Both the position numbers and the translations under genes were made by a program. Positions 2,482 to 15,424 of a stretch of 15,907 bases of DNA are shown piece after piece (position 1 is the stretch's first letter; every line of letters begins with the position of its first letter). A model generated the notes under the pieces. That model searched no databases. It had not been told where the DNA came from and saw only the letters and a list, made by a program, of their open reading frames with translations. Source of the stretch: Ruminococcus albus 7 = DSM 20455 (GTDB lineage Bacteria > Bacillota > Clostridia > Oscillospirales > Ruminococcaceae); NCBI RefSeq assembly GCF_000179635.2, contig NC_014826.1, positions 1 to 15,907 on the forward strand, in the 5' to 3' direction.

Positions 2482-3471
2482 CTATGTGCAGAGTATATCT
2501 TTTATGCTGCTGTGTACCAGTTTTGCTTTAATTATGACGCAGTTTGATATTGCCTGCTCTATCACGGATTCGATCTTCCTGCCAAGCGATGCCGCTGTTG
2601 TCCTGTATTGATGTACAAGCGCGGCTATGTCATTCAGCTCCTGCAATGATACATTTGACTTCTTCTTGCGGCGAAGTATATTTCTTACTGTGTGGCGGTC
2701 AGAACGGAAATGCTTTTCAGTGGTGTAGCGCATTTTATTTCTGCCGTACTGATCTCTTGATGCAGTCACCGGATTTTGTATTTCGGCAACTGTACATTCA
2801 GAAAGTGAAAATGTAGTTCTGTGGACAGGGAAAGCAAGGCTGTGTCCGTTGTTTGAATACTCAACTGAACAGCCTATTTTTATTATTCCTGCTTTTCTGA
2901 GGTGTGCTATCGCTTTTCTGACGGTCTGAACAGATATTCCGAGCTGTTCTGCAATAGCTTTGTACGCCGTGAATTTACTTTTGAAAACAAGGTCGTTGGT
3001 GACATCGCCTGATTTAGACAAACGGAAAAAAAGGTACATCAGCACTCGTATTTCCGCATGATGCATAGTTTTGAGGCTTTGCGCCTTTAACCATACAAAA
3101 TCTATGTTTATGTAGTTGCTGAATGGCTTGTCCTCGCCCGCATATGCCATTTCAAAGTCATTATAAGGTATTTTAAGGATGATCTCCGCATTGCAGTTCT
3201 TATCTTTGGGTTCTCTTATTATCAGAGGGGTCTTTATTTTATTGCCATTTGGTAAATTTATTGTTACAAAAGTGTTTTCAAGAAATTTTACGGAAGCATA
3301 GAATGTCTTCGTATCAATGCAAAGAGTTTCTTCGATATCCCTGTGATAGATCGAGATCCTGCCGTTGACATCACAATGGCTGGCTAGGTAGATCTCTAGT
3401 GTTAAGGCACTTTTAGGGATTTCTTTTGTTCTATATAATGCTTTGAATATCCAATCTTTAATTGTTTGCAT
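2482..3471 (-). CDS. putative plasmid replication initiator / DNA-binding protein with two winged-helix-like segments (329 aa)
   Basis: I place the start at ATG 3471 (MQTIKDW...) because AAAGGAGG lies 9 nt upstream. The track start at 3516 has no SD. Two wHTH-like segments: LTLEIYLASHCDVNGRISIYHRDIEETLCIDTKTFYASVKFLEN and EIRVLMYLFF...AIAEQLGISVQTVRKAIAHLRKAGIIKI. The tail is basic. The Rep function is inferred from this architecture plus the antisense-RNA context, not from a recognised signature. Confidence 0.55.
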   Translation of the reverse strand: MQTIKDWIFKALYRTKEIPKSALTLEIYLASHCDVNGRISIYHRDIEETLCIDTKTFYASVKFLENTFVTINLPNGNKIKTPLIIREPKDKNCNAEIILKIPYNDFEMAYAGEDKPFSNYINIDFVWLKAQSLKTMHHAEIRVLMYLFFRLSKSGDVTNDLVFKSKFTAYKAIAEQLGISVQTVRKAIAHLRKAGIIKIGCSVEYSNNGHSLAFPVHRTTFSLSECTVAEIQNPVTASRDQYGRNKMRYTTEKHFRSDRHTVRNILRRKKKSNVSLQELNDIAALVHQYRTTAASLGRKIESVIEQAISNCVIIKAKLVHSSIKDILCT

Positions 3472-3563
3472 TAAAAAAGACCTCCTTTCGTCTTCAAGCA
3501 GTTTAAAACTACACAACGAACGGAGATCTGAACATCATACTTAAAAAGATTTTTGAAATGGTA

Positions 3564-3921: not shown

Positions 3922-4626
3922 GTGAGTAAAACAATCAAGCAGATCGCAGATGAACTGCAAGTGAGCAAGCAGGCTGTCTGGCAGAGAGTCAAGCGCAGCT
4001 CTGAACTGTCGGCTATGCTTTATGAACATAGTCAAACTATAAATGGAACTGTGGTCATTGATGAAGATATGGAAAAGGTCCTCTGTGAACTTTATCCCGA
4101 ACGTCCCACAACTATAAATGTTGATGAAACAATCAAGAATGTTGATATAAACGGCGTAAACGTTGATGGGATGAGTAAAGAAGTTGATGTAAACGTTGAC
4201 GAAACATCTATATGTAAAGGTGTAAATGTTGACGATGTTGATATAAACAGCGTCAACAGCAAGAAGAATGTTGATGCTGATGTTGACGATAAACACGCAA
4301 ACGTTGATGTAAACGATATGGACGTTGATGTAAACACGTTGATAGAAACACTTCAAAGTACCGTAAATACGCTGAAACAGCAGTTGACGGTCAAGGATAA
4401 ACAGATAGATGATCTGTCGGCAATGCTCAAAAGCTCGCAGGAACAACAGGCGACTCTGGTAACTGCATTATCGGCGGCGCAGGCATTGCACGCAGGAACT
4501 ATGCAGGAACGTTTGACAGAGCATTCAGAAAATTCGGAGATACAAAGAGAAGTCAATGAAGCCGAGCAGAAGAGTCAGAGCGTGAAAAAAGGATTCTTCG
4601 CAAGGATATTCAGAAAGGGAAGCTGA
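3922..4626 (+). CDS. plasmid HTH / coiled-coil protein with a central VD/VN repeat tract
   Basis: GTG start with an AAAGGAG SD. N-terminal HTH: KQIADELQVSKQAVWQRVKR. Central degenerate NVD/VDVN repeats. The C-terminal heptad-like Q/L-rich segment LKQQLTVKDKQIDDLSAMLKSSQEQQATL resembles, from memory, the DUF536 tail of Gram-positive plasmid replication-associated proteins. Confidence 0.7.
   Translation: MSKTIKQIADELQVSKQAVWQRVKRSSELSAMLYEHSQTINGTVVIDEDMEKVLCELYPERPTTINVDETIKNVDINGVNVDGMSKEVDVNVDETSICKGVNVDDVDINSVNSKKNVDADVDDKHANVDVNDMDVDVNTLIETLQSTVNTLKQQLTVKDKQIDDLSAMLKSSQEQQATLVTALSAAQALHAGTMQERLTEHSENSEIQREVNEAEQKSQSVKKGFFARIFRKGS
4120..4343. repeat. iteron-like GTTGAY array inside the 3922-4626 ORF
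   Basis: GTTGA(T/C) starts at 4120, 4141, 4162, 4183, 4195, 4228, 4237, 4270, 4282, 4303, 4324 and 4338, plus an inverted GTCAAC at 4252. The 12-mer GTTGATRTAAAC occurs 5 times (4141, 4183, 4237, 4303, 4324). There are two runs with exact 21-bp spacing. Confidence 0.8.
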
Positions 4627-4909: not shown

Positions 4910-5074
4910 TTACTTGGGCAGACCCAGCCAGATAGCCAGACCCACGAGTGCAAAGCCGGGGATAAGTGTTACTGCTCGGATAAGTGCGGCTTTTGAAACA
5001 GATTTACGGGTAAAGCCGAATACTATCAGCAGTATGCCGATGATGAATGAAAATACCATTGAAAAAAATCCCAT
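4910..5074 (-). CDS. small two-helix membrane protein (54 aa)
   Basis: Below the track cutoff: MGFFSMVFSFIIGILLIVFGFTRKSVSKAALIRAVTLIPGFALVGLAIWLGLPK. GGGAG SD 9 nt upstream. It starts 3 nt after the ABC remnant's stop and is followed by the 4833-4870 terminator. Confidence 0.45.
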   Translation of the reverse strand: MGFFSMVFSFIIGILLIVFGFTRKSVSKAALIRAVTLIPGFALVGLAIWLGLPK

Positions 5075-5077
5075 ATA

Positions 5078-5530
5078 TTACATCTCCCTTTCCAGTTTGA
5101 TTATCCTTTGATGTCTTTCCGCCACTTCCATATCATGTGTAACCGTAATCACAGTCGTGTTATACTCCTTGTTCATGCGGGAGAGCAATGAGAGGATATT
5201 CTCCTTATTCTCGCCGTCAAGGGAAGCGGTGGGTTCATCACATAATATCAGCGGTGGACGCATTATTACTGCCCTTGCAAAGACCGCGCGTGCTTTTTCT
5301 CCGCCTGAGCATTCAAGCGGCTTTTTTTTCAATATATGCTTGATGCCGATCTTTTCCGCTATGCTTTCAAGTTCTTCTGAAAAATCTTTCCTATCGGGAC
5401 TTGCATAAAGTAGAGGAAGTCTGATGTTGTCTTCGATTGAAATAGAATCTATCAGAGCCGATTCCTGCAAAACGAATCCTATCTTACGGTTTCTCCATTC
5501 AGCCAGTTGATTGAGGTTAGCGTCAGACGG
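5078..5530 (-). pseudogene. 5'-truncated ABC transporter ATP-binding protein (MacB/LolD-like ATPase remnant)
   Basis: The frame reads ...ANLNQLAEWRNRKIGFVLQESALI... (Q-loop), CSGGEKARAVFARA (signature), LILCDEPTASLD (Walker B) and VTHD (H-loop). There is an in-frame TGA at 5531-5533, no Walker A, and no credible start (the track start is a TTG inside the domain). Confidence 0.75.
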
Positions 5531-5612
5531 TCAGAGTACACTATGTAGTGCAGAATCAGCACACTCCCCCTCGCGGCAATCACCACAGATTAGAAAAGCC
5601 ACTGACACAGCG

Positions 5613-5645
5613 AAAAAAACACCCCCATGATAATTCTGGAGGTGT
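5613..5645 (-). terminator. strand-specific rho-independent terminator of the P1 micro-ORF transcript
   Basis: Minus-strand RNA ACACCUCC-agaauuaucau-GGGGGUGU (one U-G pair; it would be a C-A mismatch on the plus strand) followed by U7. Confidence 0.6.
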
Positions 5646-5765
5646 ACATAATATATGTTTTGGTTAATAATGTCCTATTCTACGTATTGCGAAGCCAACT
5701 GCTACGCAGTACAGTGATCTTACTTGCGGAGTGTCAGCTGGATAACCATAATTGTAGCTTTATAA

Positions 5766-5794
5766 TTGACACAAAAACTAATATATGATATAAT
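5766..5794 (+). promoter_or_regulatory. consensus promoter reading toward the two-component genes (and antisense to the P1 micro-ORF transcript)
   Basis: TTGACA (5766-5771), 17 bp, TATAAT (5789-5794), preceded by TGa (extended -10). Confidence 0.6.
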
Positions 5795-5845
5795 GAATTT
5801 AATTATAAATTTTAAGTTTACTCTGTTTTTTAAACTTAATTATAT

Positions 5846-5878
5846 TTACCAGCCCCACCAGTCAAACCAATCCTGCAT
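5846..5878 (-). CDS. Trp-rich 10-codon micro-ORF MQDWFDWWGW
   Basis: AAGGAGG (5892-5886) lies 7 nt upstream of ATG (5878-5876). 4 of 10 codons are TGG; TAA stop. It sits about 44 nt downstream of the predicted P1 TSS. Translation is unproven. Confidence 0.35.
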   Translation of the reverse strand: MQDWFDWWGW

Positions 5879-5928
5879 TTTAAAACCTCCTTTTTTAGTG
5901 TTTTTATTACTCTTGTTTCGATGGTCTT

Positions 5929-5994
5929 ATTATAATTCAACATTTGTACAATTACTATCATTTTGGAGCAAACGGTATAAAATTCAGAGTGAAT
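5929..5994 (-). promoter_or_regulatory. P1: LytTR-type direct-repeat operator plus -10
   Basis: Minus strand: aTTCACTCTG (5994-5985), 11 nt, GTTTGCTCCA (5973-5964), aAATGATAG, exactly 29 nt after the right repeat, TATAAT (5934-5929). Confidence 0.7.
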
Positions 5995-6061
5995 TACATT
6001 AATTAATGTTTTTTTGAAACATTATAATGATTTATATATATTTTTTATGGAGGGGAAATAC

Positions 6062-6775
6062 ATGAAAATCGCGATTTGTGACGACCAGATGGCTATGCAC
6101 ACCGAGTTAAAAAAGCATCTGGAAAATTATGCCCAAAAGAGAAACCTTATAATGATCTACAATGACTATACCAACGGTTTTGACCTTATCAGCAGCCAGA
6201 ACGAGTACGACATTATTTTTATGGATTATCAGATGGCAGAGATAGACGGTCTTGAAACTGCCAGACAAATAAGAAAGAAAAATACTGATACTACCATAAT
6301 ATTCCTGACCAGCTTTCCCGATATCGTCTTTGATACCTTTGAAGTAAATGCATACAGGTTTTTAGTAAAGCCGATAGATGATGCAAGGCTTGAGGCTGCA
6401 CTGGATTCATATCTTTCGGACAATGATGAATCAAACTTCATCCTCATAAAGACCGATGAGAGCAACCAAAAAATAAATATAAACGATATAATTTATATAG
6501 AAGCATCAGACAAGTACTGCAATATCAGGACAAATGAAGGTACTGTACTATTCAAAAAGACCTTGTCCGAAATTGAAAAGATGCTTCCCGAGGATAAATT
6601 CTTCCGATGCCACAGAACTTATCTGGTAGGGTTCCGCCATATCGTTTCGCACACATCGACAGATGTACTTTTTGATAATAAGGAAAAAGCTCTTATCAGC
6701 AGGGTAAAGCTCCCGCCGTTTAAAAAAGCTTTTACCAACTATATAAAGAGATATAATTTCCAGAAGGGGAGCTGA
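6062..6775 (+). CDS. LytTR-family response regulator (AgrA/ComE-like)
   Basis: I place the start at ATG 6062 (MKIAICDD) with a GGAGGGG SD. The track start at 6014 lacks one. REC domain (ICDD...IIFMDYQMAEIDGLE...IIFLTS) plus a C-terminal LytTR domain (IIYIEASDKYCNIRT...FFRCHRTYLV). Confidence 0.9.
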   Translation: MKIAICDDQMAMHTELKKHLENYAQKRNLIMIYNDYTNGFDLISSQNEYDIIFMDYQMAEIDGLETARQIRKKNTDTTIIFLTSFPDIVFDTFEVNAYRFLVKPIDDARLEAALDSYLSDNDESNFILIKTDESNQKININDIIYIEASDKYCNIRTNEGTVLFKKTLSEIEKMLPEDKFFRCHRTYLVGFRHIVSHTSTDVLFDNKEKALISRVKLPPFKKAFTNYIKRYNFQKGS

Positions 6776-6777
6776 AA

Positions 6778-8079
6778 ATGACCACCGTTTCTTATTTAGT
6801 AATGCTTGCAAACATCCTGGAACAGCTTATGTTCGTCACGCTTGCAAGAACAATTTGTGATTTCAAATCATCGCGTATCAGATATCTAGGCTATTTTCTG
6901 CTCATACTCACTCTGCTACCCGTGCCTATTCTTATGAACAAACCCGATTTCTGCTCTAAGGAAATGGGTCTGATATTACAATTAATTTATGTTTTCGGAC
7001 GTATCCCCGCATACAGCGTATTATTCGAGGAATTCAGTCAGAGAGTTCTGTATATTTTCCTGCTGTCACAATGGCCGCCGCAGATATATCTGAATATTTG
7101 CAAGGCATTTATCAAAGATTATGAGCTCTGCAATCTTATCGCATTTTCTGCGGATATCCTTATTTTGTTCCTTATATTCATTTACATCAAAAGAAAAAAG
7201 ATAGAGTCCATGCTTCATCAGATCATCAAATCACTGCCCAAAAGACTTTATATAAACATACTTTTACTTTTATTTATTGCGGCAATATTTGTAATGGGCG
7301 AAACAAAACCCGATCATGAACATTATTATAAAAAATACATCCTGCCTTCCATGATGGGACTGATAGTTTTTTTATTTTCTATAGTAAAGATAAGTATATC
7401 CGAGATCGAAAAAAAGACAACGATAGATCTGCTGTCAAAGCAGGTGGAAAATGAAGTAAAGTACTATGAAAAGATAAACACCATTTATGGCGAATTCAGA
7501 AGCTTTCGGCATGATTTCAAAAATCATGTTATCTGTCTGAGGAGCCTTATCGAATCAAACGAAAAAGAAAATGCTCTTGAATACATAAACGAGATAGAAG
7601 GTCTTTCCTCTGTCGAGAAAAAGCAGTACAACACAGGAAATATAATCATTGACGCACTTTTGAATGATAAAAACGACAGAGCAGCGGCAATAAATACTAA
7701 AATAGTATTCTCCGGAATGGTCCCCACAACCGGTATAAGCAACGTTGATCTGTGTATAATAATGGCAAATGCCATAGATAATGCAATTGAAGCCTGCGCC
7801 AAGGACACCTCAGAAAAGCCCAAGGAGATAAATGCGGAAGCAAGCTTCAGGCAGGGATATTTTTTCTTTAAGATCACAAATCCTATTTATGAAGCTGTGG
7901 AAATAAAAAGCAACAATACTATTACGACTTCAAAGAGCGATAAGGATCGTCACGGCTTCGGTGTAACGAATATTCTCCGCACTGTCCAAAAATACGACGG
8001 TGAAGCCGAACTGTCTGCCGATGATAATAAGTTTACACTGGATCTGAACCTGGTATTGAAACCCGAAATCATAAAATGA
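6778..8079 (+). CDS. AgrC/ComD-type (HPK10) membrane sensor histidine kinase
   Basis: About 6 N-terminal TM helices. H-box FRSFRHDFKNH, N-box IIMANAIDNAIEA, G-box DRHGFGVTNI. The ATG lies 2 nt after the regulator's stop, with an AGGGGAG SD. Confidence 0.9.
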   Translation: MTTVSYLVMLANILEQLMFVTLARTICDFKSSRIRYLGYFLLILTLLPVPILMNKPDFCSKEMGLILQLIYVFGRIPAYSVLFEEFSQRVLYIFLLSQWPPQIYLNICKAFIKDYELCNLIAFSADILILFLIFIYIKRKKIESMLHQIIKSLPKRLYINILLLLFIAAIFVMGETKPDHEHYYKKYILPSMMGLIVFLFSIVKISISEIEKKTTIDLLSKQVENEVKYYEKINTIYGEFRSFRHDFKNHVICLRSLIESNEKENALEYINEIEGLSSVEKKQYNTGNIIIDALLNDKNDRAAAINTKIVFSGMVPTTGISNVDLCIIMANAIDNAIEACAKDTSEKPKEINAEASFRQGYFFFKITNPIYEAVEIKSNNTITTSKSDKDRHGFGVTNILRTVQKYDGEAELSADDNKFTLDLNLVLKPEIIK

Positions 8080-8105
8080 GATCAGAAAAAATCACAATAA
8101 ATACA

Positions 8106-8171
8106 TTTCACTCTGTTTATACTACCGTTCACTCTGTAATCATAGACTGCATCATACTGTAATGATACAAT
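8106..8171 (+). promoter_or_regulatory. P2: LytTR-type direct-repeat operator plus -10
   Basis: tTTCACTCTG (8106-8115), 11 nt, GTTCACTCTG (8127-8136), tAATCATAG, exactly 29 nt after the right repeat, TACAAT (8166-8171). Confidence 0.7.
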
Positions 8172-8278
8172 TTGTATGAAGGAATACTATCAAACTGTTT
8201 AGTAGTGAATAGTAAAAGCAATAAATGATTATAGCTGTTGCTATAATTTTAAAACGATATAAATGGTGGTGAAAATTA

Positions 8279-8740
8279 TTGCAATTTATCGAACACATAA
8301 ACATTTATGCTGAAAACCTTATAACATACACTGCGAGCATAAAAAAATCAGAGATATATAAAATAATCCAGCATATAAACGATAATCTTTCGGCACTGAA
8401 CATCAAAGTCGCAGGAAAATTCATTTTCACATTCAAAGAAGACAAAAATTCTGATGAAGTACAGCCTGTAGAGATACTTATCCCTGTAAAGGGTGAAATA
8501 GGATCCTCGGACAGCTACGGCAAGAAGCTTATATTCCGTCTCATCAACGCTGTTATGACAAAGCACGAGGGCAGCATCAACGATATTTCAGATTCAGAAC
8601 AAGCTCTAAAGGACTATATACAGAAAAATAATTATGAACCGATAACCAACACTTATTATGTAGTGATAAGAAACGGTGATACATTCGGTGCAGACTGTAT
8701 TTTTGAAATGTATATAGGTGTAAACTATAACTCGCTGTAA
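8279..8740 (+). CDS. GyrI-like (SbmC/AraC-effector-binding fold) small-molecule-binding protein
   Basis: 153 aa. TTG start with a GGTGGTGA SD. Two-repeat pattern with VEILIPVKGEI in the first half and a YYVVIRNGDTFGADCIFEMYIGV C-terminus, similar to SbmC ...FEVYLN...WDIEMYVAV. The family call is from remembered motif similarity only. Confidence 0.6.
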   Translation: MQFIEHINIYAENLITYTASIKKSEIYKIIQHINDNLSALNIKVAGKFIFTFKEDKNSDEVQPVEILIPVKGEIGSSDSYGKKLIFRLINAVMTKHEGSINDISDSEQALKDYIQKNNYEPITNTYYVVIRNGDTFGADCIFEMYIGVNYNSL

Positions 8741-8769
8741 AATGGCAGAAGCACGGTTTTGTGTTTGGC

Positions 8770-8812
8770 ATAACCCGTCACCCCTTACACTTTGTAAGGG
8801 GTGACGGGTTAT
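8770..8812. terminator. 20-bp perfect hairpin between convergent ORFs
   Basis: ATAACCCGTCACCCCTTACA-ctt-TGTAAGGGGTGACGGGTTAT. The T-run (TTT) is short, so efficiency is uncertain. Confidence 0.6.
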
Positions 8813-8817
8813 TTCAC

Positions 8818-8946
8818 TTATATATCGCTAAAGTGAACCTGACCTTCAAGTCGTTCTTCGGACTCAGGCTTAGGCTCTATACGCTTTTTCTTATAGATAA
8901 AAGCCCTGGTTTCGTCAACCATATCATCACAAATTACTATTTTCAT
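8818..8946 (-). pseudogene. 42-codon ORF whose first residues look like the start of a receiver domain (possible regulator remnant)
   Basis: MKIVICDDMVDETRAFIYKKKRIEPKPESEERLEGQVHFSDI. Compare MKIAICDDQMAM... of the regulator at 6062. AAGGTGA SD. The ORF runs straight into the 8770-8812 hairpin. The similarity covers only about 10-20 residues. Confidence 0.3.
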
Positions 8947-9038
8947 ATGATAAGATCACCTTGAAAAAACAATATAGCTATATAGCTGCCATCTGGAAGA
9001 AAGCTCGGTATAATGAGAGTTAAAGGGTGTTATATACC

Positions 9039-9104
9039 GTTTACTCTGAATTTAGTGATGTTTGCTCCATAATGATAGCCAGAACCGATAAGGTGATGTA
9101 TACT
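9039..9104 (+). promoter_or_regulatory. P3: LytTR-type direct-repeat operator plus -10
   Basis: gTTTACTCTG (9039-9048), 11 nt, GTTTGCTCCA (9060-9069), tAATGATAG, exactly 29 nt after the right repeat, TATACT (9099-9104). Confidence 0.7.
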
Positions 9105-9144
9105 AGCATCATCAGAAGAACACAAATGAAAGGAGCGATCAGTT

Positions 9145-9171
9145 ATGTGGCTTTGGCCCTGGTTACCATAA
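9145..9171 (+). CDS. Trp-rich 8-codon micro-ORF MWLWPWLP
   Basis: AAAGGAG (9129-9135) lies 9 nt upstream of ATG 9145. 3 of 8 codons are TGG, and it ends Pro-TAA. It sits about 34 nt downstream of the predicted P3 TSS. Translation is unproven. Confidence 0.3.
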   Translation: MWLWPWLP

Positions 9172-9437
9172 TACAAAATAACATAAATCACAATATCAGG
9201 CAGAAATGATTAATGTTTTGAAATCAATGATAATGTCATAAATACTATATCGTGTTTTTTAGTATCAATAGTAATCTCCTGATAAAACAGCGAAAAGAAA
9301 TTTATAATAAATTGCAAAAACAGTTTTCTTTGCGAATGCAATTGTATAATTTTTTTCTATACCGGTGTAGAATAACTTTTAACCGGGAAACTATATTAAC
9401 TTCTGATTTACTGAACGAAACATGAAGTAATTCCAAA

Positions 9438-9469
9438 CGATTATCTTCAGGTACATCTTCGGTTACTAC
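9438..9469. repeat. left arm of a 32-bp inverted repeat bracketing the precursor genes
   Basis: The reverse complement of 9438-9469 (GTAGTAACCGAAGATGTACCTGAAGATAATCG) matches 10297-10328 at 31/32. Weaker similarity continues about 20-25 bp on both sides. Confidence 0.8.
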
Positions 9470-9652
9470 AATACACAAATTATAAGCAGCTTTGATGTAT
9501 GCGAATACTAACCTTTGGTCTTTCGGATTTCCAGCTGGATCAGCTAACTGTTTGGCATGATATATGTCTGCTTCAGCTAATATGTGCTTTTTTACGGAAT
9601 ATTTCCTGACAATTCCAATGTTCGATCAAATTAGAATAAAGGAGTAAAAAAT

Positions 9653-9859
9653 ATGGAATTATTTGAATTAATGGCAGAAGAAGCATGGAGCTGGGGAGCA
9701 GCAATTTGTGGAGGAGTTTGTGGTCTTGGCGGAGCAGCAGGTTGTGCAGCAATCTGTGGAGTTGATGGTCCTATCCCTGTAGCAGATGCAAGTGCAATTA
9801 CAGCATCAGGTACAGCAGCAGGCGGACTTGGAGCTCTCGCAGCAGGTCTTGCATCATAA
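9653..9859 (+). CDS. RiPP precursor peptide, copy 1 (68 aa, Cys/Gly/Ala-rich)
   Basis: MELFELMAEEAWSWGAAICGGVCGLGGAAGCAAICGVDGPIPVADASAITASGTAAGGLGALAAGLAS. Strong AAAGGAG SD. Cys at 19, 23, 31 and 35. It lies immediately upstream of two rSAM/SPASM genes. Confidence 0.85.
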   Translation: MELFELMAEEAWSWGAAICGGVCGLGGAAGCAAICGVDGPIPVADASAITASGTAAGGLGALAAGLAS

Positions 9860-9897: not shown

Positions 9898-10104
9898 ATG
9901 GAATTATTTGAATTAATGGCAGAAGAAGCATGGAGCTGGGGAGCAGCAATTTGTGGAGGAGTTTGTGGTCTTGGCGGAGCAGCAGGTTGTGCAGCAATCT
10001 GTGGAGTTGATGGTCCTATCCCTGTAGCAGATGCAAGTGCAATTACAGCATCAGGTACAGCAGCAGGCGGACTTGGAGCTCTCGCAGCAGGTCTTGCATC
10101 ATAA
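9898..10104 (+). CDS. RiPP precursor peptide, copy 2 (identical)
   Basis: Nucleotide-identical to 9653-9859, with the same SD. Confidence 0.85.
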   Translation: MELFELMAEEAWSWGAAICGGVCGLGGAAGCAAICGVDGPIPVADASAITASGTAAGGLGALAAGLAS

Positions 10105-10296
10105 TCAGTTTAGTACATAGAAATATTAAAAACATCAATATTAATCCGGATTGTCAAAGAAAGTGAAACTGGATATAGCATATACATGAAACAGCCATAT
10201 ATTGTGCTTATATGACATGACGGGTAAGCTGGATGAAATTTACGAAAATCTGAGACAGGATACCGCTTAATTATATCTGCTGATATTTTTAGTTTA

Positions 10297-10328
10297 GTAG
10301 TAACCGAAGATGTATCTGAAGATAATCG
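10297..10328. repeat. right arm of the 32-bp inverted repeat
   Basis: GTAGTAACCGAAGATGTATCTGAAGATAATCG, the partner of 9438-9469. Confidence 0.8.
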
Positions 10329-10397
10329 CTTTGACTTCTTCACTTTTGGTTTAATTTATCTGTAATTTTATATAATATATAACAAGGGAAAAATAAG

Positions 10398-11810
10398 ATG
10401 AATAATAATTGTAATATCTGTTTTAAATCTGACAGTAATAATGAATATGTCTTTGATTCTGATTCATCTGTTATTTTTGAAAAAAGTCAGTATGAGAAAA
10501 GAATCGACAAGATCAGTAAAATGAAAAAGACAAATCAAATTCAGAATAAAAGTTATGACAGTCATGACATTGAAGAATATATACTTAAGTACGGACTTGG
10601 TCAAATGGTTCTGGAAGTGACTAACCGCTGTAATTTCAGATGCGAGTACTGTATTTTTTCTGAGCATTATCAAGGACACAGTAAACTTGAAAATGAAAAT
10701 ATGACATTAGAAACAGCGATAAGGGCTATAGATATGTATATGGACCTTATTGAAAAAGGTAAGATATACAATCCAGAACGCACCCCTATAATAGGATTTT
10801 ATGGTGGAGAACCCCTTCTGAATTTTGATCTTGTAAAAAAATGTGTTGAATATGCCAAAGAGCGTTATAAAGGGAGAGTTTTATTTTCAATAACGTCTAA
10901 CGCGTATCTGCTGAATGACGAAGCAAGTAAATTTATGGCTGAAAATGATTTTATGCCGATATTCAGTCTGGATGGACCGCAAAAAATACATGATAGTAAT
11001 AGAAAACTTGCCGGTGGTAAAGGAACATTCGAAAGAGTGTATCAGAATATAAGAAATTATGCACGTGTCACTAACAGTATTCCTATGATAAATAGTGTAT
11101 ATGACTATAATACTGATATGGAAGAACTGATGGAGTTCTGGTCTGAACAGAATGAAATGGTGCTTCTGTCTCTTTCTCCGGTAAATCCTTACGATACAGA
11201 TTATTACAATAGTTTTGATGAGAAAACGGTAAAGACCTTTTTTGAAAAGAAACTGAAGCTCGAAAAGTACTTTCATGAACTGGTGGCTAAAAAAGATGAC
11301 CTGACTTCAAAGGAAAAAAGAGAACTTAATTTTTTAAATGTTTTTCTTGGAAAGCCCGCGTCTTCTGTTTATATGAAAGAAATGTTCAAAGATCCTTCAA
11401 GAAGTATAGTGAAGTGTACCGGAAGCTGTGTCCCAGGAGATAAGATGTTTGTTAATGTCCATGGTGATATATATCCATGTGAAAAAGTTGATAAAACAAT
11501 GATCATAGGTAATTTAAACAGTGGTCTTGATTATTCAGTTATATGCGGATATATGAAGGAATTTGAAGCTAAAATAACTTCAGGATGCAGTAACTGCAGT
11601 GTAAAAAACGTATGCAGTTTATGTTATCAGTCACTGCACTGTGAAAGCGGATTCTGCAAAAATGCACAAAGCTGCAATAATATGAGGAATAGTTATAAAG
11701 AACTCCTTTCAAGAGCTGTTTCACTGTCAGAAGAGAATCCTGCGTGGTTTTCAGATTTTACTACAAAATATTACAAAGAAATTAAAGAATTGGCTGTGGT
11801 GCTTAAATGA
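10398..11810 (+). CDS. radical SAM / SPASM-domain peptide maturase 1 (470 aa)
   Basis: CNFRCEYC (CX3CX2C) in VTNRCNFRCEYCIF. GGEPLL motif. C-terminal Cys cluster CTGSCVPGDKMFVNVHGDIYPC ... CSNCSVKNVCSLC ... C typical of SPASM auxiliary Fe-S domains. The ~70-aa N-terminus has no obvious wHTH. Confidence 0.85.
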   Translation: MNNNCNICFKSDSNNEYVFDSDSSVIFEKSQYEKRIDKISKMKKTNQIQNKSYDSHDIEEYILKYGLGQMVLEVTNRCNFRCEYCIFSEHYQGHSKLENENMTLETAIRAIDMYMDLIEKGKIYNPERTPIIGFYGGEPLLNFDLVKKCVEYAKERYKGRVLFSITSNAYLLNDEASKFMAENDFMPIFSLDGPQKIHDSNRKLAGGKGTFERVYQNIRNYARVTNSIPMINSVYDYNTDMEELMEFWSEQNEMVLLSLSPVNPYDTDYYNSFDEKTVKTFFEKKLKLEKYFHELVAKKDDLTSKEKRELNFLNVFLGKPASSVYMKEMFKDPSRSIVKCTGSCVPGDKMFVNVHGDIYPCEKVDKTMIIGNLNSGLDYSVICGYMKEFEAKITSGCSNCSVKNVCSLCYQSLHCESGFCKNAQSCNNMRNSYKELLSRAVSLSEENPAWFSDFTTKYYKEIKELAVVLK

Positions 11811-13048
11811 ATTATAAATATTTCAGATTATATGAGGAATGCTATCTTGTAAACGGAAAAGAGAAGTCGTGTATATATGATCTCTTCAATGAAAAGGTAT
11901 TTCATGTGGATGAAGACCTAAGAAAAATTCTTACCCTGACTGAAAACAATAAAAGTTTTGATGATGTCTGTCATGAACTGAATATTACTACGACATTTCT
12001 TGAAGAAAAACTTAAAGAAGCAGAAAAATTTCAGGTAGGAGGATTCTATGAGAAACCTCCTGCAATAGAAAAAGTTACGCTGCATCCTGACTGGAAAGAC
12101 AATCTTTTTTTCAAACTTCCTCCGCAAATTAACAGAGCTTTTCTGGAGCTTAGCAATGAGTGTGATAACAACTGCTTTTTCTGTGCATCCGATCGTTATT
12201 CACTTCGTTTCAGATGCATGGGGTGCGGAAAGGATCCTTCGTATAATAATATAACTATATCTGTAGAAAAATGGACAGAGTATATGAAACAGTTATATGC
12301 TCTAGGTGTTACAGAGCTGTACATTACAGGAGGAAATGTTTTTTTGGATGTTCCTAAGCTTAAAGCGGTTATATTATCAGCTAAAGAGATCGGATTCAGA
12401 TATATAAATGTTATATCAGGAAATCGTAATATCAACGCTTTACGACAGCTGGGTGAAGTAGCGAACGGCGTTAAATTTATTATACAGAGATATCTTGACG
12501 AAAATTATAAACAACTCATTGAAAGTGATGAAATCATACAAAATATTGATATCTTGGATAAATCAGAATACTGCTTCGTGTTTTTACTTGATTACTATAA
12601 TAAATCCCTTGTAAATGATATTGCTGCAACGGTCAAAAATAAAATTAAACAGAACAGTTTTTATTTTGATTATCTTTTGGATAATCAGAATCTCACGGAT
12701 ATACAGCTTAGAGAGATCAAGTTTACCAACAGTAAAATTAAACTAGATGATTTTTCAATCAAAGGTAAATATAATCCTTGCCTCAATTCAACCGTTACTA
12801 TCAAAGCTGATGGTATTATAACTACCTGTCCGGGATTGAAGGATTATCCGTTATCAAAAACCGGTGATCTCTATGAAGCGATAAAAAAAGATAATATCAC
12901 CAGATACTCTTCACTGGGTTGCAATGATATAGAACCTTGTAATAAATGTGAATATAGATATCTTTGCAGTGACTGCAGATATATCGAGATCAAAAATGGT
13001 GCACAGCTCAATCAGACCAGAATTTGTGATAAATGTATGGTGGGCTGA
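11807..13048 (+). CDS. radical SAM / SPASM-domain peptide maturase 2 with an N-terminal PqqD/RRE-like region (413 aa)
   Basis: ATGA overlap with the upstream stop. CDNNCFFC (CX3CX2C). C-terminal CLNSTVTIKADGIITTCPG ... CNKCEYRYLCSDC ... CDKC. The first ~100 aa (YLVNGKEKSCIYDLFNEKVFHVDEDLRKILTL...) resemble leader-binding RRE domains of sactisynthases. Confidence 0.8.
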   Translation: MNYKYFRLYEECYLVNGKEKSCIYDLFNEKVFHVDEDLRKILTLTENNKSFDDVCHELNITTTFLEEKLKEAEKFQVGGFYEKPPAIEKVTLHPDWKDNLFFKLPPQINRAFLELSNECDNNCFFCASDRYSLRFRCMGCGKDPSYNNITISVEKWTEYMKQLYALGVTELYITGGNVFLDVPKLKAVILSAKEIGFRYINVISGNRNINALRQLGEVANGVKFIIQRYLDENYKQLIESDEIIQNIDILDKSEYCFVFLLDYYNKSLVNDIAATVKNKIKQNSFYFDYLLDNQNLTDIQLREIKFTNSKIKLDDFSIKGKYNPCLNSTVTIKADGIITTCPGLKDYPLSKTGDLYEAIKKDNITRYSSLGCNDIEPCNKCEYRYLCSDCRYIEIKNGAQLNQTRICDKCMVG

Positions 13049-13064
13049 CAGAAATGAGGTACGT

Positions 13065-13991
13065 ATGGATAATGTGATCGAATTTAAAAACGTATACAAA
13101 AAATATGATTCTGTAAACGTTCTGGAAAATGTAAGCTTTTCTGTGAAAAAACATGATGTATTTGGGTATATCGGTCCTAATGGTGCGGGAAAAACTACTT
13201 CCATTCGTCTTATAACAGGACTCCTTGAACCTACTCAGGGAGAAGTGAAAGTATTTGGAGAAATACCAGAAAAGAATAACATCAAATCCAAAATAGGCTT
13301 TTGTTATGATAATGATGGCCTTTATACTAATCTTACTGCTTTTGAAAATATGTGTTTTTTCGATATAGTGTATAACGATGCTAAGGGAAGAGACAAGAGG
13401 ATAAATGAACTTCTTGCACTGGTAGGGCTTGAAAAGGCAGTGAACAGGAGAGTGAGCGAGTTTTCAAGAGGAATGAAAAAACGTCTTGGTCTTGCCAGAG
13501 CACTTATCTGTTCACCAGAGATCCTTATACTTGATGAACCTATGATAGGTCTTGATCCTGAAGGGCAGGCCGATATAAAACGTATCATTAATAATATAAA
13601 AGATAAATGTACGATATTTCTGAGCTCACATAATCTTAATGATGTGGAGGAGCTTTGCAACAGAGTTGCAATACTTGAGCATCGTATACTTACCGATGGA
13701 CTTCTTTCCGATATCCTTGCAGATGATACTCCTGTTGTAAAAGTAACTTTGAATGAGCCGTGCACGTATGAACGGTTATCTGGCCTTCTTGGATCAGGAG
13801 CAAGTGATATTGAAATATCAGATAAAACAGTAAGAATCAGATTCAGCCAGAAACCGGACCTGAATACTGTAACAGGTTTTCTTATCGATAAAAAGATTGG
13901 ATTTAAAGAAATTGGTATAGTGAACAGTAGTTTAAGAGAAAAATATTTCAGTTTAGTGGATGGAGAGAATCATGAACATGCAGGCAATTAA
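13065..13991 (+). CDS. ABC-2-type exporter ATP-binding protein
   Basis: I place the start at ATG 13065 (MDNVIEFKNV) with a GAGG SD. The track start at 12948 lies inside the previous gene. Walker A GPNGAGKTT, signature FSRGMKKRLGLA, Walker B ILILDEP, H-loop SSHNL. Confidence 0.9.
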   Translation: MDNVIEFKNVYKKYDSVNVLENVSFSVKKHDVFGYIGPNGAGKTTSIRLITGLLEPTQGEVKVFGEIPEKNNIKSKIGFCYDNDGLYTNLTAFENMCFFDIVYNDAKGRDKRINELLALVGLEKAVNRRVSEFSRGMKKRLGLARALICSPEILILDEPMIGLDPEGQADIKRIINNIKDKCTIFLSSHNLNDVEELCNRVAILEHRILTDGLLSDILADDTPVVKVTLNEPCTYERLSGLLGSGASDIEISDKTVRIRFSQKPDLNTVTGFLIDKKIGFKEIGIVNSSLREKYFSLVDGENHEHAGN

Positions 13992-14685
13992 AGCGATAGC
14001 TTATAAGGAAAAGATCTCTGTAAAAAAGAGCATAAAGTCTCTTTTAATCATCAATGTTGTTTTTATATGTATACTGCTTGCGACTTCCATAAAAAAAAGC
14101 AGTGGTTTTCTGGATGAAGGTGTAACTGATGTAAGTAATCTTTTGGTCGGAAGTACAGGCTATGTTTCTATATTTTTATCATTTGTGACATTTATAAGTA
14201 CACTTAAATTCTGGCAGGAAAAAAGTATGGATGCTATTGATTCCCTCTTTTCCCTTCCAGTATCAATAAGAAAAATACTTGTTGGAAAAGTAGCGTTTTC
14301 AATGCTTATTGGAGTTATTGGTTTTGCTGTAGCTTTTATAACAAGCATTATTGTGTACGCGGTTAAATTTAAGGTTTTTGCTTTTTCACCTGTAGCAGCG
14401 CTGTTAATGCTGGCTATATCGCTTCTGCTGAATTTTTCTTATGGTATAATAAACGGTTTCTGTATGTGGCAGCTGTCAGTTGGTAAAGCTAAAATAATTC
14501 AGGGGCTTACATATGTTATTTTCCTTGGAGGTATCATAGGCCTGAATGGATGTATTACTGCTGATGGGATAAATATGAATGTGGTATATGCTTTGATTGC
14601 TGCGGTAATTTTACTTGCAGCCGGAGCAGTATATTCACTAATCCTTGCAAATAAGGAAAAGATAATACTTAATCACATAGAATGA
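13972..14685 (+). CDS. ABC-2-family permease (6 TM)
   Basis: GGAGAG SD before ATG 13972; an alternative ATG at 13960 is in frame. It overlaps the ATPase 3' end. EKSMDAIDSLFSLPVSIRKILVGK motif, typical of ABC-2 permeases, plus multiple TM helices. Confidence 0.8.
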   Translation: MNMQAIKAIAYKEKISVKKSIKSLLIINVVFICILLATSIKKSSGFLDEGVTDVSNLLVGSTGYVSIFLSFVTFISTLKFWQEKSMDAIDSLFSLPVSIRKILVGKVAFSMLIGVIGFAVAFITSIIVYAVKFKVFAFSPVAALLMLAISLLLNFSYGIINGFCMWQLSVGKAKIIQGLTYVIFLGGIIGLNGCITADGINMNVVYALIAAVILLAAGAVYSLILANKEKIILNHIE

Positions 14686-14698
14686 AAGATTATTGTAA

Positions 14699-15424
14699 AT
14701 GACTAATATTATTCAAAGTATAGTAGCGGCCGAAAAAGTACTGATGCTTTTGATCGCCATAGGATATTTTTTTTATTTGAGACAGAAAAGGGTGCTGACT
14801 CATAGCATACCAATAATTATTATCATAGGTATTTGTTCCTGTTTAAATCTTTTTAACCATAATCATGGTGTAATTTACAATGTGATATTTTGTGTCTCAA
14901 ATTTCGCAAAATTATATGTGCTTTCAACTGTAGGATATACCCTCTGGAAACAGAGAAAAACAAGAGCGGGATCAGATGCAAATACAGGTATATTAAGTTT
15001 TATAATACTGCTGACAGTTATGCTGTGCTGGGGACTGCTCATGCGTGTTCTTATTGGATCTCAGATTTCTGAAGGCTATAATGAATATTTAAGAAATTTC
15101 ACAGTCACTTCCGGAACCTTTTTTGTTTTGCTTAATGGTCTGATCATAGGTCCGATATCTGAGGAAATTTACTACAGATGCTTTTACGGTGAAATGTTCA
15201 TGTCATGGACAGACAAAATGAAATACTCCGCAGTCTTTACAATTTTTATTACTGCAATAAGTTTTTCTTTAAGCCATATCAGCATTTATTCAAATGATCT
15301 TATGAAAATGATCCAGGTTTTCCCTATAGGCATCATACTTGGATATGTGAATTATAAAAAAGGCGTTTTATATTCTATCCCGATGCATATACTTTACAAT
15401 ACCGGATTATTGCTGATCAGGTGA
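14699..15424 (+). CDS. CPBP-family (CAAX/Abi) intramembrane glutamic protease
   Basis: SEEIYYR (EExxxR), FSLSH (FxxxH) and HILYN (HxxxN) motifs in a polytopic membrane protein. Confidence 0.85.
   Translation: MTNIIQSIVAAEKVLMLLIAIGYFFYLRQKRVLTHSIPIIIIIGICSCLNLFNHNHGVIYNVIFCVSNFAKLYVLSTVGYTLWKQRKTRAGSDANTGILSFIILLTVMLCWGLLMRVLIGSQISEGYNEYLRNFTVTSGTFFVLLNGLIIGPISEEIYYRCFYGEMFMSWTDKMKYSAVFTIFITAISFSLSHISIYSNDLMKMIQVFPIGIILGYVNYKKGVLYSIPMHILYNTGLLLIR

Follow-up and report, generated by a model that had tools for sequence, protein, structure and literature searches.

Several bacterial quorum-sensing systems detect a peptide with a membrane histidine kinase and answer through a response regulator of the LytTR family. 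In SilA/SilB/SilCR of group A streptococci, BlpRH/BlpC, ComDE/CSP and PlnABCD, an HPK10-type kinase is paired with a LytTR regulator, and the regulon consists of the pheromone gene together with bacteriocin genes. Their pheromones are made as double-glycine-leader precursors, which are cut and exported by a C39-peptidase ABC transporter. The staphylococcal agr system (AgrBDCA) has a polytopic kinase, AgrC, a LytTR regulator acting on direct repeats, a hypervariable signal and sensor that define pherotypes, and an induced small RNA encoding a short peptide. To our knowledge, kinase-sensed peptide quorum sensing has been thought to require a leader-bearing precursor and a dedicated processing or export protein, either AgrB or a C39 ABC transporter. 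In another class, LCP and SIP (8 amino acids) with RopB/Rgg, ultrasmall open reading frames (ORFs) lying divergent from the receptor gene directly encode a hydrophobic, aromatic signal of 8-10 amino acids with strain-specific "codes" (PMC10518010). The receptor there is a cytosolic RRNPP-type factor, which needs the peptide to be re-imported, and histidine kinases, two-component systems and LytTR are not mentioned in that paper (PMC10518010). Here, we describe a stretch of 15,907 nt from Ruminococcus albus 7 (contig NC_014826.1; hereafter the window), which carries three promoters with LytTR-type operators (P1, P2 and P3), a LytTR regulator, an AgrC-like kinase and tryptophan-rich ORFs of about ten codons. 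As the overall best explanation we consider it probable, from the predicted features set out below, that this module is a peptide quorum-sensing system controlling bacteriocin production.

A join of the last 600 nt of the window to its first 600 nt is found uninterrupted and 100% identical in two independent metagenome contigs (L005 and L006). The window is therefore a complete circle, a plasmid-like element of 15.9 kb from rumen Ruminococcus, and a motif scan of it covers the whole replicon. The kinase protein is identical on 10 retrieved contigs (23 read), the longest of about 19 kb; a search of PLSDB found nothing similar by DNA or by protein. Orthologues of the regulator and kinase are chromosomal in R. 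albus (AR67, 8 and KH2T6) and occur also in Ruminococcus sp. YE71 and several metagenome-assembled genomes, with kinases 65-80% identical to that of the window, and more distant pairs (33-53%) occur in Lachnospiraceae, Oscillospiraceae and Dorea contigs. At E <= 1e-20 the kinase family comprises 281 clusters, for which the only public names are "GHKL domain-containing protein" and "sensor histidine kinase".

The three promoters share one architecture of 66 bp. P1 (5929-5994, minus strand) consists of a left repeat (5994-5985), an 11-nt spacer, a right repeat (5973-5964), a -35 position occupied by TAGTAA and, 29 nt after the right repeat, the -10 box TATAAT (5934-5929), with a predicted transcription start site near 5922. 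P2 (8106-8171) and P3 (9039-9104) lie on the plus strand, with left repeats at 8106-8115 and 9039-9048, right repeats at 8127-8136 and 9060-9069, TAGACT and TAGCCA at -35, the same 29 nt, the -10 boxes TACAAT (8166-8171) and TATACT (9099-9104), and predicted start sites near 8178 and 9111. An earlier, sequence-only reading of this DNA had given the strings and coordinates of these copies and claimed for all of them 10-bp repeats, an 11-bp spacer, 29 bp to the -10 box and a weak TAGnnn at -35. The strings and coordinates proved exact, and a direct check found the whole geometry at each site, the -35 hexamers being poor throughout. The pattern TTYRCTCYR-N11-GTTYRCTCYR occurs without mismatch at three places in the window, which are P1, P2 and P3; dinucleotide shuffles gave 0.04 matches even with two mismatches allowed. 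To avoid circularity, a 35-nt weight matrix was built from other genomes only (30 training sites from other loci, none of this plasmid family), and both strands were scanned. It scored P2 at 34.3, P1 at 33.5, P3 at 29.9 and a site at 2017 (minus strand) at 14.4 bits, the next score being 5.6; the maxima of 200 shuffled windows averaged 5.2 (95th percentile 10.3) and never exceeded 18.5. A scan of the rest of the replicon, as the sequence-only reading had advised, thus returns three strong sites and a weaker fourth. A fifth pattern match (4731->4702, two mismatches) was rejected, as it has no -10 box at the right distance and no score with the independent matrix.

The SilA operator, defined by mutagenesis, consists of 10-bp repeats and an 11-bp AT-rich spacer, whereas the classic LytTR operators of Blp, Com and Pln are of the 9+12 form with the same 21-bp period (PMC2766830). 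P1, P2 and P3 have the two direct repeats of 9-10 bp, the 21-bp period and the position just upstream of a weak -35 that mark LytTR-type operators; their 10+11+10 layout equals that of SilA, weak -35 included, and their period is the classic one, so that the type of geometry assigned to them earlier is borne out. The architecture also adjoins orthologous regulator/kinase pairs in about 25 other loci, which supports in silico the claim that it defines a regulon of the LytTR regulator. All compared loci that are long enough and match the pattern (about 25) have a P1-type site divergent from the regulator gene, and a P2-type site follows the kinase gene in L011, L012, L013, L016, L017, L022 and L023. 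A comparison of 36 distinct sites puts the conserved unit at about 12 bp, ACCGTTYACTCC, recurring every 21 bp; 27 of the sites have 29 nt between the right repeat and the -10 box, and six have 30 nt. In P1, P2 and P3, the right repeat ends 6 nt upstream of the -35 position. TAG or TAT recurs at -35 across loci, with TAGACA in P2-type promoters. Repeats, -10 box and spacing are kept in the other loci while spacers and flanks diverge: in a nine-locus alignment of P1, only the repeat cores (TTxACTC and TTTxCTC), TATAATAA, GGAGG, ATG and TGG are invariant, and the stretch from the repeats to the regulator start codon varies in sequence and length. The architecture of the promoters is genuine, conserved and of high significance, and belongs to a known kind, the LytTR operator. 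Since the cross-locus footprint, the SilA-like geometry and the regulator and kinase domains all support it, P1, P2 and P3 are very likely the operators of the plasmid's own LytTR regulator, whose binding is predicted.

The regulator gene (6062-6775, plus strand) encodes an N-terminal receiver (Pfam Response_reg, 64.2 bits; cut-off 30.2) followed by a C-terminal LytTR DNA-binding domain (Pfam LytTR, 81.7 bits; cut-off 22.6), the arrangement that defines LytTR response regulators. The kinase gene (6778-8079, plus strand) encodes an AgrC/ComD-like protein with the hallmarks of the HPK10 type, that is, a polytopic sensor of 5-7 transmembrane segments (here six hydrophobic segments by hydropathy, about six transmembrane helices, in residues 1-206), an H-box (SFRHDFKNH, invariant in the kinase alignment) and a GHKL domain of HATPase_c_5 type (77.8 bits; cut-off 22). 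A LytTR regulator and its kinase had been expected at 6062-8079 from the sequence-only reading, and the Pfam domains, above their cut-offs, together with the membrane segments agree with it. The similarity of the kinase to AgrC is weak: the AgrC model gives 34.6 bits against 500 and the AgrA model 45.8 against 400, and no match to AgrB or AgrD was found among the scanned ORFs. Like AgrC, the kinase has a sensor domain that is hypervariable across loci. Unlike agr, the plasmid has neither AgrB nor an AgrD-type thiolactone precursor, and its promoters are convergent where those of agr are divergent.

What P1 transcribes is very small. Its transcript, predicted to be about 300 nt long, crosses an opposing promoter, Pc, before terminating, probably at a hairpin followed by U7 (5612-5646, minus strand; minimum free energy -19.9 kcal/mol, z = -3.2). 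Before the 5646-5612 hairpin it contains no coding sequence other than ORF 1 (5846-5878, minus strand), which reads MQDWFDWWGW and a stop (ATG CAG GAT TGG TTT GAC TGG TGG GGC TGG TAA) behind the Shine-Dalgarno (SD) sequence GGAGG (5890-5886). An SD and a tiny ORF for 7-21 amino acids, most often 7-12, follow all examined P1-type promoters (about 25 loci) but one. The encoded peptides include MLDWFDWWGW, MLEWFDWWLW, MQYWFDLWGWNF, MQDWFDFWGWFL, MFGWWDW, MFDWWDW, MWNWLFG, MWDWLFP, MWEWWFK, MFWDWFDF, MFDWFWDLW, MLDWILTYFGL, MWEWLFGLFGC, MGGFWDFIFGR, MEHIWDWIEKHF, MGNFLEWLFNGR and MTWSTILDFLFGNK. In 22 distinct peptides, tryptophan makes up 22% and phenylalanine 13% of the residues, and identical peptides are encoded with synonymous codon differences (GAT/GAC, GGC/GGT/GGA, TTT/TTC). 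The promoter and its tiny ORF are tandemly duplicated in two distant loci, L031 (about 2740-3125, MKNTKKPLNDWVDWLIEKFGG twice) and L042 (2460-2740, MGGFWDFIFGR twice). The first 20 or so transcribed nucleotides after the P1 -10 box (5928-5908, minus strand) are conserved as well, as AAGACCATCGAAACAAGAG in the R. albus clade and AAGATCAATGAAAC in distant loci; the counterpart at P3 is the similar CATCATCAGAAGAAC. An Rfam scan of the window found no known RNA family.

The tiny peptides co-vary with the sensor domain of the kinase, while the regulator and the kinase domain stay near-identical. Homology between the window and the plasmid variant L021, whose tiny peptide is MFDWWDW, starts at 5752, just upstream of Pc; identity is 98-100% per 100 nt in the regulator gene, 92-98% in the kinase domain and mostly 95-100% downstream of the kinase gene, as against 72-79% across P1 and ORF 1 and 64-79% across the sensor-coding region. 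In L031 and L027, kinase domains that are 99% identical are joined to sensor domains of 46% identity, and the peptides are unrelated; in L011 and L017 (97% and 76%), the peptides are different. Where two loci share a peptide, sensor identity comes close to kinase-domain identity, as in L017 and L022 (88% and 95%) or L014 and L015 (78% and 81%). Such co-variation, the pherotype signature of agr and com, argues for the peptide as the sensor domain's ligand, and it seems likely that ORF 1 encodes the cognate signal of the kinase.

How this signal compares with known ones follows from what accompanies it. Domain scans of the module detected neither AgrB nor a leader peptide nor a C39 transporter, so the signal looks leaderless. 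Pheromones of the double-glycine type, as in Sil, Blp, Com and Pln, come with a leader and a C39 ABC exporter, whereas the peptides of this family, at 7-21 amino acids, are leaderless, and the ABC proteins of the window are an ATPase and an ABC-2 permease without C39. The locus resembles the LCP systems in that an ultrasmall ORF would directly encode the hydrophobic, aromatic peptide; it differs from them in the receptor, since the neighbouring genes encode no cytosolic RopB/Rgg (RRNPP) protein but a LytTR regulator and a membrane histidine kinase. A literature search, of non-exhaustive coverage, found no account of a leaderless tiny peptide combined with a kinase and a LytTR regulator.

The target of P2 is a gene at 8279-8740 (plus strand). 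Its product of 153 amino acids is DUF5085-like at a score below the cut-off (Pfam DUF5085, 22.2 bits; cut-off 30), and a sequence search of the PDB returned nothing, so that only the fold comparison is informative. The AlphaFold2 (AF2) model (pLDDT 85.6, pTM 0.81) has the duplicated beta-alpha-beta-beta module with a ligand cleft that characterizes the GyrI-like (SbmC/BmrR-C/CtaZ/albicidin-resistance) ligand-binding fold. Its Foldseek matches are GyrI-like proteins only, namely STM3175 (albicidin resistance), CTR107, the C-terminal domains of EcmrR and BmrR, CtaZ (closthioamide self-resistance) and SbmC, with E-values from 5e-7 to 3e-5, TM-scores of 0.66-0.77 and sequence identities of 9-16%. 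SbmC/GyrI, STM3175 and CtaZ bind aromatic or hydrophobic ligands, and some of these proteins protect the producer or the target; the P2 product probably binds or buffers the aromatic peptide or provides self-protection. The gene keeps company with the module, being operator-driven also in the distant loci L030, L037 and L038. A link between a GyrI-like protein and a quorum-sensing module was not encountered in the literature searched, none of the searches being aimed at the GyrI-like protein. A perfect 20-bp inverted repeat (8770-8812, plus strand), a terminator-type hairpin with no T run after it, closes the P2 unit. In the P2 leader, 27 nt (8224-8250) are unaligned in L001-L004, the length difference being about 35 nt.

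P3 is followed by ORF 2 (9145-9171, plus strand; MWLWPWLP and a stop, SD AAGGAG at 9130-9135), a pheromone-like peptide that heads the putative sactipeptide operon and may be an orphan peptide, a cross-talk peptide or by now a mere upstream ORF. P3 probably arose as a duplicate of the pheromone-type promoter, and would thus be a paralogue of P1, because they share 82% identity over 39 nt; the alignment of P3 with P1-type promoters extends from the repeat to the ORF. Divergent from P3 lies a short ORF of 42 codons with an SD (8818-8946, minus strand), whose start, MKIVICDD, resembles by eye the MKIAICDD of the regulator. We tentatively read it as the remaining 5' end of a second LytTR regulator gene, since lost, and this would suggest that P3 and ORF 2 derive from a decayed second module; tblastn did not detect the ORF (8946->8818) as a regulator homologue, and the likeness consists of eight residues and the SD.

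Downstream of ORF 2 come two identical genes (9653-9859 and 9898-10104, plus strand) for 68-amino-acid sactipeptide precursors of the huazacin family (NCBIfam HuaA_fam_RiPP, NF037972, 50.1 bits; cut-off 35). They are followed on the same strand by genes for a radical SAM/SPASM protein (10398-11810, SPASM just below its cut-off), a second radical SAM protein (11807-13048), an ABC ATPase (13065-13991), an ABC-2 permease (13960-14685) and a CPBP protease (14699-15424), which, by their domains, are the maturation, export and immunity genes of the cluster. The combination of HuaA-type precursors with radical SAM/SPASM maturases is that of the huazacin family, thioether formation being a prediction. 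A scan of the plus strand from P3 to 10450 found no terminator-like site. The duplicated precursor genes are flanked by inverted repeats (9392-9496 and 10270-10374; 68-99 nt, 78-81% identical), both arms of which would encode VVTEDV(P/S)EDNR in opposite orientations. An invertible switch at these repeats was considered and rejected: all covering plasmid contigs show one orientation, and only the number of precursor copies (one or two) varies. The repeats could form a long-range RNA stem or be a relic of rearrangement.

The regulon in other genomes has a similar content. In R. albus 8 and L012, a third operator precedes a gene for a secreted protein with a B-lectin and a peptidase-M15 domain, the architecture of albusin B (PMC6240691). 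Such albusin-B-like genes, with signal peptide, B-lectin and peptidase M15, lie behind a LytTR operator in L013 (9444->8194, R. albus 8), L012 (8963) and L023 (7443); in R. albus, quorum sensing therefore probably controls the production of albusin-type bacteriocins. The third operator precedes other secreted proteins in L017 and L014, and an operator is found before a glucosaminidase in L038 and before a radical-SAM peptide cluster in L039. Together with the targets of P1, P2 and P3, these point to a recurring regulon in which a tiny peptide gene is joined by a GyrI-like protein and a bacteriocin. The targets of the promoters (the two ultrasmall ORFs, the GyrI-like protein and the sactipeptide cluster) had not been named in the sequence-only reading, nor had the probable fourth site and the promoter facing P1.

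The fourth candidate site, P4 (1953-2017, minus strand), consists of TTTACTCCG-N11-GCTTACTCTC with ATAG at -35, 29 nt and the -10 box TATAGT (1958-1953). It precedes two small-protein genes, for a membrane protein of 143 amino acids (1836-1405) and then a protein of 52 amino acids (1403-1245). With 14.4 bits, above the 95th percentile of the shuffle maxima (10.3), it is probably a weaker fourth site of the LytTR regulator.

Pc (5766-5794, plus strand; predicted start site about 5801) is a perfect consensus sigma-70 promoter, TTGACA-17 (with TG)-TATAAT, and aims through ORF 1 and P1 into the regulator and kinase genes. Of 20 loci, 13, distant ones included, have a 12/12 consensus in the corresponding position, and five more match it at 10-11 of the 12 bases; the predicted overlap of the Pc and P1 transcripts is about 112-184 nt in most loci. 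In L012, the left repeat is only about 45 nt away from the start codon of the regulator gene, which leaves no room for a separate regulator promoter there. Pc is probably the constitutive promoter of the regulator and kinase genes, reaching them through a leader that would be antisense to the pheromone mRNA and that has no notably stable fold. Unlike Sil, Blp, Com and Pln, the plasmid would thus have its kinase and regulator genes apparently behind a convergent constitutive promoter and not behind an operator. A single repeat-like half-site, GTTTACTCTG (5816-5825, plus strand), lies at about +16 to +25 of the Pc transcript; it is kept as a AGTTTACTCTG-like sequence in R. albus-clade loci (L011-L017 and L021), not in Lachnospiraceae-type loci, and, as (A)GTTTACTCTG, could be a roadblock or repression site. 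In prgQ/prgX of the Enterococcus faecalis plasmid pCF10, a pheromone-responsive and a constitutive promoter likewise face each other, with an antisense overlap of about 100-200 nt. By analogy, mutual interference between P1 and Pc is plausible, although PrgX is an RRNPP protein, of another family than LytTR, and the interplay on the present plasmid is read from sequence only.

From these features we infer the following course of events. A dimer of the phosphorylated LytTR regulator would bind two ACCGTTYACTCC units 21 bp apart, the right one ending 6 nt before the poor -35, and so activate P1, P2, P3 and probably the weaker site P4. P1 would then give the RNA of about 300 nt whose sole product is the leaderless MQDWFDWWGW; this peptide would leave the cell and be sensed by the polytopic domain of the AgrC-like kinase, closing a positive feedback loop. 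P2 would induce the cytoplasmic GyrI-fold protein, in its probable role of peptide binding, buffering or self-protection, and P3, the presumed duplicate with its orphan ORF MWLWPWLP, would be the only operator-bearing promoter upstream of the huazacin-family genes. Pc would fire towards P1 and probably supply the regulator/kinase mRNA through the 260-nt antisense leader, so that P1, when induced, and the basal expression of the sensor would interfere mutually. We give about an even chance to the convergent-promoter mechanism and to the proposed role of the GyrI-like protein.

Several observations weigh against this picture. ORF domain scans of the module revealed no exporter, processing or modification enzyme. 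L021 has the same ORF 2, which thus does not vary along with the kinase allele; the divergent operator of L019 precedes a gene for a membrane protein of 233 amino acids and no tiny ORF. The 480 nt from P3 to the precursor genes hold another promoter-like site (9279-9308), and P4 scores below the best shuffle value (14.4 against 18.5 bits). Pc was not found in L027 and L032, nor near P1 in L038 and L041, and a weaker, proximal promoter-like site (6014-6042, 10/12 matches) could also serve the regulator operon. Could the repeats, then, be LytTR operators and the tiny ORFs something other than signals, such as regulatory RNAs, leader ORFs or cell-private modulators of the kinase inside the membrane, the real extracellular cue being different? 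The missing exporter, an RNA of about 300 nt for an ORF of 33 nt with an overlapping antisense promoter, the conserved first 20 or so nucleotides of the P1 transcript, and ORF 2 standing at the head of its operon like an upstream ORF would all fit. However, the peptide is conserved at the amino-acid level through synonymous changes and always has a strong SD, 7-12 residues are too short to span a membrane, and variation of the peptides in step with the sensor domain, beside near-identical regulator and kinase domains, is the signature of a ligand and its receptor. Leaderless secreted signals of 8-10 amino acids are, moreover, established for the RopB systems (PMC10518010). We therefore regard this alternative as unlikely.

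Less probable still are two others. The three 66-bp copies might be recent promoter duplications, as the 82% identity of P1 and P3 over 39 nt would allow, or sites for another plasmid protein, for example the helix-turn-helix (HTH) proteins encoded at 2482-3516 or 3922-4626, and in either case not operators of the LytTR regulator. Yet the motif and its spacing accompany the regulator/kinase pair in R. albus chromosomes and in distant Lachnospiraceae and Oscillospiraceae contigs, loci without detectable homologues of the plasmid's other proteins; the repeats stay while spacers and flanks diverge, and the motif fits the GTT-containing LytTR consensus as well as the SilA geometry. We give equally little credit to the idea that the tryptophan-rich ORFs are ribosome-stalling leaders that sense tryptophan, or radical-SAM substrates yielding small modified peptides. 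Three or four tryptophan codons in 8-10 codons and two radical-SAM genes downstream of P3 speak for it, but tryptophan-metabolism genes are absent, no gene lies downstream in the P1 unit, the loci with tiny ORFs mostly lack radical-SAM genes, several members of the family have a single tryptophan, and proper huazacin-type precursors of 68 amino acids are already in the cluster. On these grounds the attenuation-leader and radical-SAM-substrate readings were rejected, and a signal peptide sensed by the kinase remains the preferred explanation.

Elsewhere on the circular element, a serine recombinase is encoded at 177-941 and an HTH replication-like protein at 2482-3516, and some plasmid variants carry an IS21-family insertion near 1758. 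The protein of 234 amino acids encoded at 3922-4626 (plus strand) has an N-terminal HTH and internal degenerate VDVN/NVD repeats, which correspond to direct DNA repeats at 4177-4291. On the minus strand lie an ABC ATPase gene without its N-terminal third (5078-5470, starting at profile position 66) and a gene for a membrane protein of 54 amino acids (4910-5074). Full-length homologues of both (82% and 63%) occur in L014, close 3' of the kinase gene, and the two genes are probably a relic of the chromosomal source locus of the plasmid module.

What appears to be new is a three-component bacteriocin quorum-sensing module with an apparently leaderless signal from an ultrasmall ORF, a GyrI-like partner and a convergent promoter; the kind of operator was already known. 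The evidence leaves evenly poised the wider proposal that this would be the first recognized three-component family in which an unprocessed, leaderless, tryptophan-rich signal of 7-12 residues is sensed extracellularly by an AgrC-like kinase, with pherotypes, a pheromone-binding GyrI-fold protein in the producer and a convergent-promoter switch, and that such a family would be widespread in rumen and gut Clostridia (the 281 kinase clusters), governing albusin-B-type and radical-SAM bacteriocins. If so, a kinase-sensed translation product of a 24-36-nt ORF would extend the class of leaderless peptides from RopB receptors to two-component systems, and the lack of annotation of such systems would be explained by signal genes that fall below the length at which genes are called. 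Short synthetic peptides would then be ready-made inducers or inhibitors, and Pc, as a conserved consensus promoter convergent with P1, is a compact natural switch that could be studied. For R. albus, a key fibre degrader of the rumen, the module provides a testable handle on the control of bacteriocins, including those of the albusin-B type that shape its competition with R. flavefaciens.

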